This document shows positions 9,001 to 15,000 of a stretch of DNA of 64,000 bases, in pieces. Source of the stretch: Simkaniaceae bacterium. GTDB lineage: Bacteria > Chlamydiota > Chlamydiia > Chlamydiales > Simkaniaceae. The stretch covers positions 1-64,000 of the forward strand of contig JBFWSA010000003.1 of NCBI GenBank assembly GCA_050248615.1, in the 5' to 3' direction. Positions within the stretch are counted from its first letter, which is position 1; each line of letters begins with the position of its first letter. Position numbers: made by a program.

Positions 9001-12000
9001 TTTTGGTCACGAAATTTCTACAGCTAGGGCCCGTCTTGGATCAGATATCAGTGCTGGTAGGTTAGAGTATTTAGGCATTGCAAGAGGGGATAAAATCGCT
9101 ACCATTCACCCTCTAGGGGATGAAACCCATTATGGAGGAAAAGGACCTCTAAAAATCATTTTCGAAAGTGGAAAAACGATTGTATATAAGCCGCGTAGTA
9201 TGATGCCAGAAAAGCTCCTTTGTGATGAAAGAGAAGGCCTTTTGCGACATGAAGGATTTGGCACCTATAAAGTTGTCTGTCGAGAGGATTCTTCAGGAGA
9301 CGCTTATGGCTACTCTGAGTTTGTTCAAAACATTCCAGATAGAAATAGAGTGAATACAAAAGAAGAATTGGGAGAATATGTTCGAAAAATGTGTGTTTTA
9401 GATGCATTATCTAAAGAGCTAGGGCTTTCTGACCTTCATTATAAGAATATCATTACTTCTGATCTCAATCCTTGTATTATTGATGCAGAAGTGTTTATGA
9501 ATCCTCCCCATATTAAAAGTGGTGTATTAGATGCATCCACAGGATCTCTCTACCACTTTGATATTATGCAGGGGCAAGTCAAAGGATTTAAAGGAGAGAA
9601 TAAGATTTGGATCGATCCGAAGATTACGGAAAAGTCAGAGCACGATTTTACTTATGGAATGTCTGAAGAAGCTTTGGCTAGTATCGGTATCGATGTTGCG
9701 GAAATAAGAGATAATGTCACATTATCAACAAATACCCGTCAAGCCCTTCCCGAGGTACGGGAGGCTTTAGGTGGAGAACCGGGTCGGTTTGTTCTAAAAG
9801 AGACCCCCCATTTAAGTACGATGCAGTATAATTTAGATCATCGTGATGAAAAATCTATTAGAATTTTTGTCGAATCAGTACGGGATTGGGTGAATGATGA
9901 ACGAGGATTCCAGTTCCAAGAAGAATCTGTTCCGGGAATTATTGAAGGGGTGAAAAGAGACGCTCTTAATCACGATGTTCCAGCATTTCATTATGATAGC
10001 CAAAGAAATGTCATCCTTTATCATGGAACTGTGATTGGAGTGCCTGAATAAACTCCCAAGATCATGGAAAATCTAAAGGGCGCCAAAGGGCGCTCTTTTT
10101 TTTAGTCATCAAATTTTTTAGGTAGCCTGAGAGAAATTCTTTGAAGAGTTTAGGGTCGAAGTGAGGGGGGAGTTCGGAAGAGTCTGCGCTCGCAATCAGG
10201 ATTTCTAAAATCGCAAAAGCGCCATCCTGTTGATCTTTTGAGGAGAGATGGGCGTAAGAGAGGATGTAGGTAAGGGCGTAGCGGGTGGCTGTTGCCAAGT
10301 TTTTCCAGGTTAGTCCATCGTCAAAAAGCGCTGCGATATGTTCGCTATACTCTGAGAGGCTAGTTTCGGTAAGGGTGTCTACCCGTGAGGGTTGAATCGC
10401 CTTTTTTTCTTGAGGGAATTTGAGTGCTAACTCGATAAAATGGGGCAAGAGCTCTTCGAAAAAGGGGTGGGTTACTTTCTCAGGCAAATAGGCAGGATGC
10501 ATACTGACCATCACGTAGTGAAGGGTGAGGATCGTGGCTTTCTGTTTTTCTTTGAGGTTCATTTCAGGGTTAGGAGAGATAAAGGATAGAATGTCCTGAA
10601 TTAAATTTGGGAGTTCTGACCACGTGAATCCCTTCGAGTAATGGGCATGGAGATAGCGCGCCACGTTAAACAGATCTTTCTCTTCTAGTTTTGTGACAGG
10701 TAGGATCGGTTTTTCGATCACTTCAAAAGAGAGATCATCTTGGATCACTTCAAAACACTCGCTATCCTGTTCTTCGACAGAGATCACGACTTCGAAATCT
10801 GGAGGTTGTTGTGGTAGGTCTTGCATGGGGCAAGAGAATACCTTCTCAGAGAATTCAGTTCAAGATTTCATCAAGTGTCAGTTGATACTTGGGGTGGTGG
10901 CGTAGGTGATTATGTTTCCCCTTTTCAATCGAAATTAAAGAAACGTCCGATTTTTCCTTAATCAGTTTTAAAAGGCGGGTACTAGAATCGTAAGGGACCA
11001 ATTCATCTTCAGTTCCATGAAAGATATGAATGGGAGAGTCGACTTTGACAATCCATTTATCGGTTCTAAAATGGTATTTCAAGATAAGGGGGATTAAGAA
11101 GCGGGGGAGATAGGGTGCTTCCCGAGGGGTGAGGTCGAGAATGTTGAAATAGGGAGCTTCTAAAACGAGTGCTTTGGGGTCGTGATGAGAGGCGACATAG
11201 GTAGCGATCCCGGTCCCTAAAGAGCGTCCATACACGATAATTTTATCTTCCGGGAAGTAATCAAGAAGATAGTCATAGCAGTAATCGGCATCGTGGCAGA
11301 TCGCTTTTTCACTCAGTTTCCCGCGACTTTTTCCAAATCCTCGATAATCCATGATGAAAAGATCGTAGCCCCGATCGGTGAATTCATGGGAGAATTTCCC
11401 CATATTATGATTTAAGTTTCCTCCACGTCCATGAAAATAGAGGACCACTCCTTTAGGGTTTTCAACATAAAAATAGAGGGCATTGAGGCGAGCCTCTTTA
11501 TCTGTTTCTAGAAAAAGTTCTTTAAAGGGTTCTTCATAGGCAAAGGTATGGTCATCAGGGAGGGAGGCTTTTTGAAACAGCAGCTCTTCTTGGTGGGTAT
11601 AGATGTGGGCTATGCCAAGAAAAATCAGAAAGATCACACCGAGGAGGGAGAGAATTAGAGGTCTTTTCATAATTCTCATTTTATCCATAACGGCGTTATT
11701 TGACCAGATGGAAGACATTGCGGAGCAGGCTCCAACGGGGGGCATCTTTATAGGGAGGCTCCCCCAGCATCCAATAATCGTATTGTGTTTTTTTGAATCC
11801 AATATGTTCTTGGATAGTTAGCCACCGATTCAAAAAGAAAATAAAAGCAAAGGCATCAAATTTCACCGGAAAAGCTAAGAAGGAGTCTCCAGAAATATCT
11901 CCATATTTGATCGTGACATAATCGGGATGGGTTAGGCAGTAGTCGATCCCTTGTTCATAGGTCCAGAACATGGCATCGATAAACCCTTCTGTTAAGAGGG

Positions 12001-15000
12001 TGTCGATCTCTTCAATGTTTTCTATGGAGAATTCTTTGGCTTTGGGGAGAACGCGGCGCAAGATTTCTTGGTAGTGTCCTAGAACACCAATCACTAAATA
12101 GGGACTTTCTTGGAGGTGGTAGAAGTTAGTAAACTCATCTTTTCTATTCCGGGGGACGATCAATACATTAGGGGTGCTTAAGTAATAGTGGGGGAAGTTC
12201 ATATTGGCAACGGTTGCTTCTGATAGCAGTACAGGAGACATCGCAATATCGAAAAGGTTACTTCTGAGACTCTCTCCCAGTTCGCTATAGATAAAAGGGA
12301 CAAAGATGAGCTCAACATTCATGTCATAGGCGAGTTTATAGGCTAGGGCAGTGTTGAAGCCTACGAGTTCTCCCCGCTGGTTAAAATAGGTAAAAGGGGG
12401 GAGATTGGGATGGTATCCTACATACATCTGGCGCGAAGTATAAATCCGTTGCAACGTGTCTTGAATAGCAAATCTTTCAGGATCGCGGGGAATTTTTTGC
12501 CCAATTTTGTACAGGGTGACTTGGGGCTTTTCTGTAAGGGCGGTATCGATGTCATAAGTCATCGCACTATTTTGGAAGGGAACGAAACGTTGGATCAGAT
12601 ATTTTGCACTAAAAACGGTGGTGATGAGGAGGAAAAAAAAGATAAAAAAATGGCGGAAAAAGGTGGCGGGTCGAAAAGTTAACCTTTTATAGTATCCGAG
12701 AAGAAGGAGGATCACAAAAGCGACCATACTCGATACACTGATGATAATTTGGAAATTTTGCGTGATGATCGAGGCATTATCGTAAATGTTCACAGCGGTT
12801 TTGGGAAAACCCAGAGTGTCGATTAAAAAGGAAATAGAATAGGTCGCATCTTCAGGTCCCCCAAACGACATCAACACGGTGAGAAAGCTTACAAGGATCT
12901 GATCCACCCCTGCCAACTCATGACGGAAGTAATAGGAGATGAACATAATAAAGAAAAGGATGAAGAGGTTTCCCACTTGGGTAAAGGTATAAGCAATGGG
13001 GACAATCATTTGAGAGGTGCTATGGAGTTCTTTATCTTTGATCTGAAAACGCTCTGCATAATGACGGGCAGTTTTGCTGAGAAAGGGGATCGCAATACTG
13101 GGTGATCCGATGACGAAGGGGAGAAAACAGGCGGCGCGGACATCGCCAATCACCTCGCGGTATTTTAGGGGGGTGCAGCTGATCACGAGGGCAGGAAGGA
13201 CCCAAAATGTGAGGATGAGTGCAATGAGGATCATGGGGATAATATAAAATTCAAAGTCTTTGAGATCTGATAAGCTGACATTTCCAACAAAGTTTGCAAA
13301 GATCGCAAGAACCCCTAAAGGGGAGACAATCGTGATCCCTTTGAGGACTTGTTCAATGGTATTGTTGACCCGCTCAAGAAAAGAGATCAAAGGTTCTTTA
13401 TGAGTTAGGTGCATGAGGGCGATTCCAATGATAATGGCAAAGATGGCAATAGCTGGAACAATGTTATTGACTAAGTCATAGATAGGGTTTTCGGGAACTA
13501 AATAATTCAGAAAGTTTTGTTCAAAAGAAGAGTGCGCTCCTGTTCCGAAGAAGAGGATGTTAATTTGAGGAAAGAGCATGTTCATGAGATAAACAGCTGT
13601 AAAAACAATTCCCCAGATAAAAAACAGAAAAATCCATCCTTTTTTAAAGAGTTGCCTGGCAACAGTGGGCCGAGTGGAGCCGAGTCCGTGCATGATCGAG
13701 GTAGGGATGTAGAGGAGAACCACCATTTGGATAAACATGACAAAGGCTTTCCCAATGGGTTCAAATACAGAGCAAAGAGGGCCCAGTAAAATCCCTAAAA
13801 AAGATCCTATGATAATGGCGAGAATAATTTGAGTGGTGAGGCTCAGTTTGCGCATCTACAAAACGATGTAGCCAATTTGCTTCATGACGCCTAATTCGTT
13901 CCAGACTTCATTTAAATGGGTGATTTTGCCCCCTTCAATGGTAAAGATGGCAAAAATTTTGATGACGACGGGTTTATCGGTGGGTTCAACCCCTAAAAAG
14001 ACTCCCCGTTGGACCCCTTGGATCTGAATACGAGCCAGGACTTTATTCCCTTCTGCTAGCATCTCAACGATCTTGAGCTTGAAATCGGGAAGAGCTTCAT
14101 GGAGAGAGCGGGTCCGTACGCTGAGGTTTTTGCTGAAAGCGTCATATTTACTATACGAAGAATCAAAAACAACGTTCGAATCTTGGACGCCATAGTTTGA
14201 GGCGAGCACTTCTTGCAGCGCTCGGGGGTCGTTTTTCGAAAAGGCATCGTAAAATTCTTTGACGAGTAGTTTATTTTCCGATAGAGGATCGGTCCCTCCT
14301 CGTGGGGTGATGATATGGGAAAGTTCGCCTTCACTTGCAAAGACGGAAAAGAAAAGCGTTAAAAAAAGCAAAATTTTCTTCATGGCGAGTTTGCACCTCT
14401 ATCTCTATCTATTCTCACCCTTCCTTTTCGCATAAAGTTTTTTTTAACGCGAGAGGATAGTTTGAATCACCCTAGTCATATCTAGTGCCTGACCGCAAAA
14501 ATCCTTCATGGAATTTTGCGGTCAGGCAGTAGGAAAAAGTCCTAGTGAAATTGGAGTTGACAGGGAAAATATTTGTGTTAAAATGGAGTTTAAAAGGAAA
14601 AAATCTATGTATAATCGGTGGTTAGGAAAGCATAAGCAATTGAAAGACAGCTTCTTCTTTTTTGGCCCTAGGGGAACAGGGAAAACCCAATGGATTCGGG
14701 ATACCTTTCCAGATGCTATCTATTTCGATCTCTTAGACTTTGAGACTTATCAGACCCTTCTTTCAAATCCGAGTGCGATTAGAGAGAGAATTCCTAGAAA
14801 TTTTGAAGGGTGGATTATCTTAGATGAAGTCCAACGTATCCCTGAACTGCTCAACGAAGTGCATCGACTCATTGAACAAAAAAAATACCGCTTTGGATTG
14901 ACAGGTTCTAGTGCCCGAAAATTAAAGCAAAAAGGGGTGAATCTTTTGGCTGGTCGAGCGATTGTGCATGCCATGCACCCTTTAATCATCCAAGAATTAG

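Follow-up and report, generated by a model that had tools for sequence, protein, structure and literature searches.

The minus strand of the window, by which we mean the whole 64,000-nucleotide stretch of Simkaniaceae bacterium DNA that was analysed, carries a 719-aa open reading frame (ORF) that starts with ATG and runs without interruption (positions 11696..13855, 719 aa plus stop). The initial annotation had placed a sodium:dicarboxylate symporter (SDF) domain and a family-3 solute-binding-protein (SBP) domain in this single chain, and our Pfam searches bore this out with values equal within rounding: SDF at residues 6-380, scoring 132.9 bits (threshold 27.9; 2e-38) over positions 1-380 of the 387-position model, and SBP_bac_3 at residues 479-599, scoring 48.7 bits (threshold 26.4; 8.2e-13). 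Directly upstream, with no gap, lies a SnoaL-like (NTF2-fold) gene with an N-terminal signal-like segment (13856..14383, minus strand). Downstream, 7 nt past the stop, follows an alpha/beta hydrolase gene (Hydrolase_4) with an N-terminal hydrophobic anchor (10855..11688, minus strand). Pfam and synteny mark both as syntenic neighbours, and the SnoaL-like gene is no obligate partner. Among the neighbouring genes as assigned with Pfam, no ABC gene adjoins the ORF. Contigs of two RNA libraries match the ORF over part of its length with 95-99% identity, a weak hint of expression, DNA carry-over being possible.

To describe the parts of the protein, we combined sequence profiles with a full-length AF2 model built on a 122-row alignment (pLDDT 92.3, pTM 0.88). 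Only ~5 residues precede the carrier fold in both sequence and model. The carrier itself is a divergent SDF/GltPh-fold domain of eight transmembrane (TM) helices and the hairpins HP1 and HP2, delimited by Pfam, hhalign and VIA (residues 1-388; 12692..13855, minus strand). It is followed on the same strand by a short basic cytoplasmic loop (KRLTFRP..., residues 389-395; 12671..12691) and by a ninth TM helix, on which the chain returns to the periplasm (residues 396-424; 12584..12670; column entropy 3.05 bits over 122 sequences). Next come a linker of variable sequence that the model shows as partly ordered (residues 425-465; 12461..12583; 3.37 bits, pLDDT 73-94), a family-3 (class F) solute-binding domain with both lobes complete, recognised by Pfam, phmmer and VIA (residues 466-697; 11765..12460), and a C-terminal tail set apart by its conservation and pLDDT (P-R707-W708-S..., residues 698-719; 11699..11764), with the C-terminus outside. 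Of the "extra hydrophobic segments" reported earlier, a hydrophobic stretch is present, but AF2 and hydropathy make it a single helix (396-424) that links carrier to binding domain. Across the 122 sequences, the mean net charge is +2.9 for residues 386-398, before TM9, and -0.5 after TM9. The positive-inside rule and the AF2 model together support an outward-facing (periplasmic) SBP domain, in agreement with the earlier proposal of a carrier of GltPh/EAAT fold that bears a tethered family-3 domain.

The carrier domain belongs by profile to the SDF/DAACS family (PF00375, TC 2.A.23). Aligned with 21 canonical SDFs using hhalign, it gave a probability of 100 and an E value of 6.7e-42 at 16% identity, and the AF2 model, compared by VIA, has the GltPh fold of eight TM helices and two re-entrant hairpins arranged in scaffold and transport domains. 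The best VIA match was EAAT3 in the iOFS state (9d69; Z 36.6, rmsd 2.5 A, 367 residues), with GltPh 6uwl at Z 35.1; the carrier is modelled in an intermediate outward-facing state, with Z of 35-36.6 there versus 27.6-28.1 for outward GltPh. The three ordinary SDF paralogues of about 405 aa noted previously are indeed in the same genome (404, 405 and 413 aa). They keep intact motifs and score 412, 396 and 306 bits, compared with 134.5 bits for the fused protein in the same SDF comparison. The nearest PDB carrier by sequence bears the title "ancestral uncoupled aspartate transporter", and the best NCBIfam matches, all weak, are DctA, SstT, and cystine and Lys/Arg/Orn binding proteins.

In GltPh, the TM7 motif N-(M/L)-(D/N)-G-(T/S) coordinates Na+ and substrate. 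In our protein the segment that hhalign aligns there is T-Q-V-G-N, and N-x-D-G-T was found in none of 150 representatives and none of 102 best homologues (0/252 fused proteins) versus 21/21 canonical SDFs. The HP2 tip has a 3-residue deletion in place of the G-x-P-G loop of canonical length, and the TM8 D...N...D/N residues are replaced: the equivalents of D394, N401 and D405 (GltPh numbering) are Q366, S373 and M377. TM8 contains no acidic residues, and the transport core has few conserved charged ones. Judging from conservation, the carrier is nevertheless under maintenance rather than decayed, because its column entropy (2.34 bits; 2.47 for the HP1-TM8 half) differs little from the binding domain's (2.45 bits) and the polar residues of the pocket (Q293, N296, T365, N367, Q369 and S373) are kept at 20-22/22 and 47-53/53 in two chlamydial clades.

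The SBP match had been recorded as partial (96 of 132 model positions), but the domain is complete. In phmmer searches against PDB, residues 466-695 matched AncCDT-1 (PDB 5t0w) end to end (9.6e-16); this nearest solved binding domain, titled an amino-acid-binding protein, superimposes on the AF2 model of ours with Z 27.1 and rmsd 2.1 A over 227 residues. Both the SBP_bac_3 (PF00497) profile and the complete two-lobed fold are present (TM 0.89). In LAO/HisJ structures, Ser...Thr...Arg in lobe 1 is the alpha-carboxylate clamp; here these positions are S540, S545 and T548. Arg548 occurs in 0/22 members of this gene's clade, where P541 is invariant, in 52/53 of the next clade and in 85/122 of the family sample. 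The lobe-2 Asp for the alpha-ammonium group is also missing in the sequence alignment, position 632 being Ser in 44, Thr in 43 and Asp in 5 of 122 sequences, and Thr in this protein. Since T548 replaces the canonical Arg and the alpha-ammonium Asp is lacking, the binding domain of this protein may not bind ligand in the way typical of such domains. With every canonical substrate and Na+ motif gone from the carrier, and both Arg and Asp gone from the clade's binding domain, the label "glutamate/aspartate-type" finds no support. Pocket residues of the carrier and cleft residues of the binding domain shift together across three clades, as expected if the two meet one common solute.

No other stretch of the protein is as conserved as the tail (2.16 bits), with R707 in 117/122 and W708 in 120/122 sequences. 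Its pLDDT is 77-90 in the full-length model versus 48-52 in a model of the binding domain only (122 versus 40 alignment rows). This gap, together with a pTM of 0.88 though the larger part makes up 60% of the chain, suggests that the domain arrangement is fixed; we infer the direction of the cleft and the contacts of the tail from pTM and pLDDT alone.

We next determined how widely this architecture occurs. The family comprises 430 clusters (50% identity) at E<=1e-30. Because both Pfam domains are found in 99/102 best homologues, 143/150 best representatives are 690-770 aa long, and in a sample of the phylum 125/400 genomes have a match at E<=1e-20, in most cases over the full length and without internal stop, the two-domain architecture is neither chance nor an assembly artefact. 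The last of these counts extends an earlier one of end-to-end homologues across Chlamydiales (12/99). By family of the phylum, 85/90 sampled genomes matched in one, and 0/46, 0/29 and 0/23 in three others. Outside the phylum, Pseudoalteromonas accounts for 41 records and Spongiibacteraceae for 1. ESM-Atlas holds 14 clusters with the fused architecture. The fused design is therefore widespread and not a chlamydial oddity. As the initial annotation had cautioned, databases do list it, by automatic annotation (JGI names and the ESM-Atlas clusters); our literature searches, like the earlier one, found no description of an SDF carrier fused to a family-3 binding domain. In 7 genomes of the same bacterial family, among them the genus's other sampled genome, the two neighbours are there without the fusion gene between them, which is thus dispensable. 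In Pseudoalteromonas, the neighbourhoods of the gene vary and give no substrate clue. The suggested scavenging of host amino acids is not supported either: the gene is missing from its site in those 7 genomes, and its protein family is found equally in free-living marine Pseudoalteromonas.

On balance, we lean toward a tethered-SBD, elevator-type secondary transporter whose substrate and coupling are non-canonical. The folds, the topology signal, the maintained carrier, the joint changes of pocket and cleft, the wide conservation of the fusion and the TAXI-GltS precedent speak for this reading; the missing SDF motifs, the lack of Arg and alpha-ammonium Asp in this protein and the dispensability of the gene speak against it. 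The single chain would be a binding-domain-dependent secondary transporter, with residues 1-388 forming an elevator carrier of the GltPh/EAAT type that, as in related proteins, is presumably a trimer. TM8 would end in the cytoplasm, and the basic loop and TM9 would then return the chain outside, where the ~40-residue variable linker would hold the complete family-3 domain in the periplasm. The P-R-W-S tail may pack onto the membrane part, docking the binding domain in a fixed place above the carrier. From there, the tethered domain would catch a small solute and hand it over to the pocket among HP1, TM7, HP2 and TM8, and the elevator would move it inward from this remodelled pocket. Because the pocket lacks acidic residues and N-x-D-G-T, the substrate pose and 3-Na+ coupling of GltPh would be inapplicable; ion coupling may be different or absent, with affinity and direction coming from the binding domain. 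Most of the family, in which the Ser/Thr/Arg clamp is retained, probably handles a carboxylate-bearing solute, and this gene's clade, with its Arg replaced, probably some other solute. We regard as unlikely a bolder version, in which the elevator is deaf to ion gradients and the doubly tethered domain drives or gates its cycle, the R-W-S tail latching closure to movement, to give a binding-domain-rectified uniporter or ligand-gated conductance. If true, such a gradient-independent elevator would add a fourth class to the SBP-dependent secondary transporters, independent of the others and far larger.

We considered whether the SDF fold might instead be a non-transporting trimeric anchor, making the protein a membrane-anchored periplasmic receptor or scaffold with three binding domains. 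Loss of every canonical catalytic motif, few conserved charges in the transport core and dispensability of the gene would all suit a pseudo-transporter of this kind. However, HP1-TM8 is conserved as well as the binding domain, a clade-specific polar pocket is kept at the canonical site, and there is no cytoplasmic output domain, given the very short N-terminus and the outside C-terminus. A plain anchor also needs no complete two-hairpin elevator fold (Z 36 to solved transporters), and we consider this explanation quite unlikely. The reading closest to the initial annotation, a glutamate/aspartate (DAACS) symporter with canonical Na+/H+ coupling that gains affinity from its tethered amino-acid-binding domain and so scavenges amino acids of the host, is improbable too. 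The names of the protein's homologues make the organism a chlamydia, both Pfam families belong to amino-acid systems, and AncCDT-1 and the weak NCBIfam matches point the same way; against this stand the missing NMDGT motif, HP2 tip and TM8 D/N/D residues, the clade's lack of Arg548, the family-wide lack of the alpha-ammonium Asp, the occurrence in free-living Pseudoalteromonas, the loss of the gene in same-family genomes and the presence in this genome of three canonical SDF paralogues whose motifs are intact.

The intermediate state of EAATs opens an uncoupled anion pathway, and our model is nearest to intermediate outward-facing states. A binding-domain-gated conductance, in which ligand moves the carrier into or out of that state to make a ligand-gated channel or uniporter similar to the GluR0 type, would also accord with the missing ion-coupling residues and with the title of the nearest PDB carrier. 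Yet the state of an AF2 model says nothing on the preferred state, ancestral reconstructions score high because they are consensus-like, and no conserved pore-lining pattern came up, though no search aimed at one was made; we hold this reading to be just as improbable as the canonical symporter. Finally, it is very improbable that the C-terminal domain is not a binder but a periplasmic cyclohexadienyl-dehydratase-like enzyme, coupled to import of the product. Such dehydratases (5jos, 5hpq, 3kbr, 6bqe and 6wup) are among the top PDB matches, but identities are just 18-24%, ordinary binding proteins score equally and the top match, AncCDT-1, is a non-enzymatic ancestor. Cleft residues that vary by clade also suit a shift of ligands more than they suit one fixed active site.

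The preferred tethered-SBD transporter can be set beside several known systems. It shares with GltPh/GltTk/EAAT/ASCT a common fold (residues 3-390, Z 34-36.6, rmsd 2.5-2.9 A); at ~16-18% identity, it differs in lacking N-x-D-G-T and TM8 D/N/D, in an HP2 tip 3 residues shorter, and in having a ninth TM helix and an extracytoplasmic domain beyond the shared fold. The binding domain has the two-lobed class-F fold of LAO/HisJ/ArtJ and AncCDT-1, with the clamp kept in most of the family, but differs from LAO/HisJ/ArtJ in being tethered at both ends, in its extra conserved RWS tail and in T548 for Arg. ABC importers of the GlnPQ/OpuA type carry covalently tethered family-3 binding domains. They resemble our protein in fusing the same binding-domain family to a translocator, with several receptor domains per oligomer, although their translocator is an ATP-driven ABC TMD/NBD. 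Until 2025, to our knowledge, TRAP and TTT were the only secondary transporters known to use binding proteins. Like TRAP (DctPQM, SiaPQM) and TTT, the fusion brings together a periplasmic binding module and a secondary carrier of the elevator type, here in one chain, and has no ATPase. In contrast, the membrane part of TRAP/TTT is a monomer of DASS/IT-superfamily fold that has a Q subunit as its scaffold and is unrelated to our carrier, and their SBPs are of DctP or TAXI types, unrelated in sequence and fold to our domain. No homology to TRAP DctQM/DctP, TTT TctABC or GltS/TAXI appeared among the Pfam/NCBIfam matches; by analogy, the fusion would work like TRAP, TTT and TAXI-GltS while being no member of them by homology. 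Rare TRAP Q-P fusions and the fusion of a binding domain to an ABC importer are both on record (PMC8276074).

The closest parallel is TAXI-GltS, described for Bordetella pertussis BP0403/BP0402 and for Lachnospiraceae fusions (PMC12344293). Both systems pair or fuse an SBP with a secondary carrier other than the TRAP or TTT membrane components, one for which modelling suggests an elevator, and both are proposals from genomics and modelling. They differ in that TAXI-GltS joins a TAXI SBP to the ESS-family GltS and our protein a family-3 SBP to an SDF/GltPh fold, both halves being of unrelated fold, in the position of the SBP (N-terminal in the TAXI-GltS fusions, C-terminal here), in number (14 InterPro fusion entries versus 430 clusters at E<=1e-30), and in that GltS keeps its normal glutamate function while our carrier lacks the canonical motifs. 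In the same paper, SBPs are argued to pair with elevator carriers, perhaps with these alone, and further SBP-dependent classes are wanted to test whether the elevator mechanism permits SBP recruitment (PMC12344293).

The SDF and family-3 SBP design would add another class to the secondary transporters that binding proteins assist. After TRAP, TTT and TAXI-GltS, it would be the third or fourth case in which an SBP and an elevator carrier were joined independently. It offers a test of elevator-only SBP recruitment on GltPh/EAAT, the structurally best-studied elevator fold, in a family with hundreds of natural variants, covalent 1:1 stoichiometry and members in cultivable Pseudoalteromonas. Having lost ion and substrate motifs and gained a binding domain, the family is also informative on the evolution of coupling among SLC1-type carriers. 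In chlamydiae, the gene is a candidate for accessory uptake.

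The fusion gene (window 11696..13855, minus strand) is a single unbroken ORF with an ATG start, encoding the 719-aa protein P0001. Pfam placed SDF at residues 6-380 (E = 2e-38, 132.9 bits against a cut-off of 27.9) and SBP_bac_3 at residues 479-599 (E = 8.2e-13, 48.7 bits against a cut-off of 26.4), which confirms the initial annotation in joining a carrier and a family-3 binding domain in one chain; the NCBIfam matches, to DctA, SstT and the cystine and Lys/Arg/Orn binding proteins, were all far below threshold. We performed phmmer against PDB sequences and found that residues 5-364 align with the 'aspartate transporter' 9bgz (9.2e-10) and also with GltPh. 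Residues 466-695 align end to end with AncCDT-1 (5t0w, 9.6e-16), so the binding domain is complete. The genome (2.04 Mb in 69 contigs) also holds three ordinary SDF paralogues of 404, 405 and 413 aa, with SDF scores of 412, 396 and 306 bits; the SDF part of the fusion gene scores 134.5 bits.

An AlphaFold2 model of the full-length protein, built from 122 aligned family members, reached a mean pLDDT of 92.3 and a pTM of 0.88. It predicts a carrier at residues 1-388 (TM8 being helix 353-388), a short loop at 389-395, a ninth helix (TM9) at 396-424, a linker at 425-465, an alpha/beta domain that is the binding domain at 466-697, and a tail at 698-719 with a short helix at 710-714. Residues 3-390 of the model superpose on solved SLC1-type carriers in VIA-align, with intermediate outward-facing states matching best (EAAT3 9d69, Z 36.6, rmsd 2.5 A over 367 residues; GltPh 6uwl, Z 35.1); for comparison, outward GltPh 2nwx gave Z 27.6 and rmsd 4.2 A. 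For residues 466-697, AncCDT-1 matched at Z 27.1 and rmsd 2.1 A over 227 residues, and Foldseek agreed.

The initial annotation had left the side faced by the binding domain as a gap. Both chain ends of GltPh-type carriers lie in the cytoplasm. Across the 122 sequences, mean net charge is +2.9 in the loop preceding TM9 and -0.5 in the stretch following it; by the positive-inside rule, TM9 therefore crosses from the cytoplasmic to the outer side, which places the binding domain in the periplasm. Conservation peaks in the final 22 residues of the protein: W695 is present in 122/122 sequences, W708 in 120 and R707 in 117, and the motif RW[SCNA] lies within the final 40 residues of 129 of the best 150 representatives. 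In the full-length model the tail has pLDDT values of 77 (701-710) and 90 (711-719). When residues 455-719 were modelled alone, from an alignment of 40 rows rather than 122, the domain kept 91-97 while residues 705-714 fell to 52 and 715-719 to 48. From this loss and the pTM of 0.88, obtained for a chain of two domains, we infer that the tail would pack against the membrane-embedded part, with the binding domain fixed at both ends, the two alignments being of unequal depth. A two-chain complex prediction from alignments, pairing the carrier (1-430) with the binding domain and tail (455-719), gave 0.27 against a mark of 0.32 and counts neither for nor against binding.

We divided 93 full-length homologues into three groups by identity to P0001: 22 sequences at >=42%, 53 at 33-41% and 18 at <33%. 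Column entropy is lowest in the tail (2.16 bits), followed by the carrier (2.34), the binding domain (2.45), TM9 (3.05) and the linker (3.37). Q293, N296, T365, N367, F368, Q369 and S373 are each retained by 20-22/22 and 47-53/53 members of the two chlamydial clades, which thus have in common a polar set at the canonical pocket. This pattern of conservation indicates that the carrier is no decayed relic, and we consider a receptor or anchor that performs no transport improbable. Pocket positions 249-253, 292, 333-334 and 366 change between the clades in step with cleft positions 482, 485, 541 and 548; the clades are few and related, so this joint change is no more than suggestive, although it is what would be expected if the carrier and the receptor recognized one solute.

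The carrier departs from canonical SDFs at key sites. Profile-profile alignment of family residues 1-400 with 21 canonical SDFs was unambiguous (probability 100, E = 6.7e-42, 371 columns) yet gave only 16% identity. HP1 reads G-S-P-S-I-A-I-P in place of S-S-S-S-A-T-L-P, TM7 reads T-Q-V-G-N in place of N-M-N-G-T (N-L-D-G-T/S in others), the HP2 tip is three residues shorter, and the canonical D...N...D of TM8 is replaced by Q366, S373 and M377. A search for N-[MLIVT]-[DN]-G-[TSAC] found it in 0/150 best representatives and 0/102 best homologues, compared with 17/18 canonical SDF matches; in the alignment, 21/21 canonical sequences have N-x-x-G-x at this column. The binding domain is atypical as well. 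Its lobe-1 Ser/Thr/Arg positions, which clamp a carboxylate in LAO/HisJ-type proteins, carry Ser in 71/122, Thr in 61/122 and Arg in 85/122 of the family sample and are S540, S545 and T548 in P0001, and the lobe-2 Asp position is S/T. Arg548 occurs in 52 of the 53 sequences at 33-41% identity, in 11 of the 18 below 33%, and in 0/22 of P0001's own clade. Because of this and the absent SDF motifs, the 'glutamate/aspartate' label should be dropped; a canonical Glu/Asp scavenger is accordingly unlikely, at roughly a one-in-ten level of belief. We give the same low credence to a conductance or uniporter gated by the binding domain, a reading that overlaps with the boldest one, a carrier that would be driven by its binding domain and no longer respond to ion gradients. 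A periplasmic CDT-like enzyme is very improbable. Our best reading, at a little better than an even chance, is an elevator transporter with a tethered binding domain, whose substrate and coupling would both be non-canonical.

The fusion is found well beyond this genome. We performed phmmer against 1.84 billion representatives, resulting in 2130 matches at E <= 1e-3, 988 at <= 1e-10 and 430 at <= 1e-30; 143 of the best 150 representatives are 690-770 aa long, and 99 of the best 102 homologues carry both Pfam domains. Past the best homologues the E-value falls from 2.3e-50 to 7.2e-8, where ordinary SDFs start. Source names include Chlamydiia, Simkania, Simkaniaceae, Parachlamydiales, Pseudoalteromonas and Myxococcota, and some homologues bear the JGI annotation 'Na+/H+-dicarboxylate symporter/ABC-type amino acid transport substrate-binding protein'. 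Of the 400 genomes scored from the phylum, 125 match at E <= 1e-20: 12/34 in the window's own family and 18/69, 85/90, 0/46, 0/29 and 0/23 in others. Some genomes carry two copies, three of these in tandem (genome:contig:positions G223:C31:20418-24597, G374:C13:9425-13700 and G172:C3:19260-23016), and the tandem copies differ from each other, each being only ~30-36% identical to P0001. With the single Pseudoalteromonas protein P0093 as query, the fusion turned up in 41 Pseudoalteromonas records and in a single MAG of Spongiibacteraceae. The ESM Atlas holds 14 clusters of this architecture, most commonly from Chlamydiota and Pseudomonadota.

One protein of this divergent SDF subfamily, P0270 (locus L067:2453-3772, minus strand, genome G108), is unfused: it consists of the carrier and TM9, shares the motif losses and ends ~20 residues past TM9 without a binding domain. 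The neighbor of its gene, which overlaps the end of that gene, is not an SBP gene but encodes an M16-family peptidase. On the same locus (4369-6999, plus strand), a ribonucleotide-reductase large-subunit gene is split by Hint and LAGLIDADG domains, an intein.

In the window, the fusion gene directly follows a SnoaL-like gene (13856..14383, minus strand) with no gap, and an alpha/beta-hydrolase gene lies 7 nt past its stop. The hydrolase ORF as called (10855-11802, minus strand) begins at a TTG that lies within the fusion gene; its true start is likely the ATG at 11688. The order SnoaL-like, fusion, hydrolase recurs in 10/19 loci, down to 42% identity and with differing outer flanks. In 7/10 further loci of the window's family (L070, L071 and L073-L077; genomes G041, G149, G292, G339, G119, G076 and G378), the SnoaL-like and hydrolase genes are adjacent (~0-690 nt apart) and the fusion is absent, including in G292, the other sampled genome of the window's genus. 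Whether the gene is present at this fixed position thus varies within a family and also within a genus; the gene is therefore accessory, was probably lost repeatedly, and does not form an obligate functional module with its two neighbors. In three loci of another family, a same-strand gene just upstream that overlaps the fusion encodes a DUF3192-domain protein of 270-334 aa (L016:3663-4664, L019:659-1468 and L022:3669-4487). Pseudoalteromonas neighborhoods had nothing in common (5 loci, 13 neighbors), and the chlamydial and Pseudoalteromonas loci examined gave no substrate clue. Since the family occurs in free-living Pseudoalteromonas and the gene is missing at the same site in same-family genomes, we also dropped the proposed role in scavenging host amino acids. 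Contigs from two RNA libraries match parts of the ORF (12082-12617 and 12663-12986; 12153-12387) at 95-99% identity, a weak hint of transcription that DNA carry-over could also explain; the stretches left uncovered carry no meaning.

Other features were seen nearby. A perfect 43-bp palindrome (window 14486-14528; 15-bp arms, 13-bp centre) sits in the divergent intergenic region, overlapping the first ATG of a 416-aa ATPase ORF. The genome holds exactly two copies, the second at C4:67104-67146 (locus L081). Metagenome contigs have differing flanks either side of 14482-14517, where depth rises to 28, the pattern expected of a repeated element. Two chlamydial genomes have eukaryote-type domains encoded beside the fusion gene, a weak RING-finger match (E = 1e-4; L023:3682-4725, minus strand) and a Ser/Thr protein kinase (L015:1-849, plus strand).

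The fusion architecture is real and widespread, and we found no published account of an SDF-SBP fusion in the full-text literature, a scope outside which subscription journals, TCDB and InterPro lie. The closest published work is on TAXI-GltS: PMC12344293 describes TAXI-GltS pairs and 14 fusion entries, states that use of a soluble SBP was previously known only for TRAP and TTT carriers, and puts forward the elevator mechanism as the feature that allows it. PMC8276074 names TRAP Q-M, TRAP Q-P and ABC SBP fusions. The putative fusion transporter belongs with the binding-protein-assisted elevator carriers.
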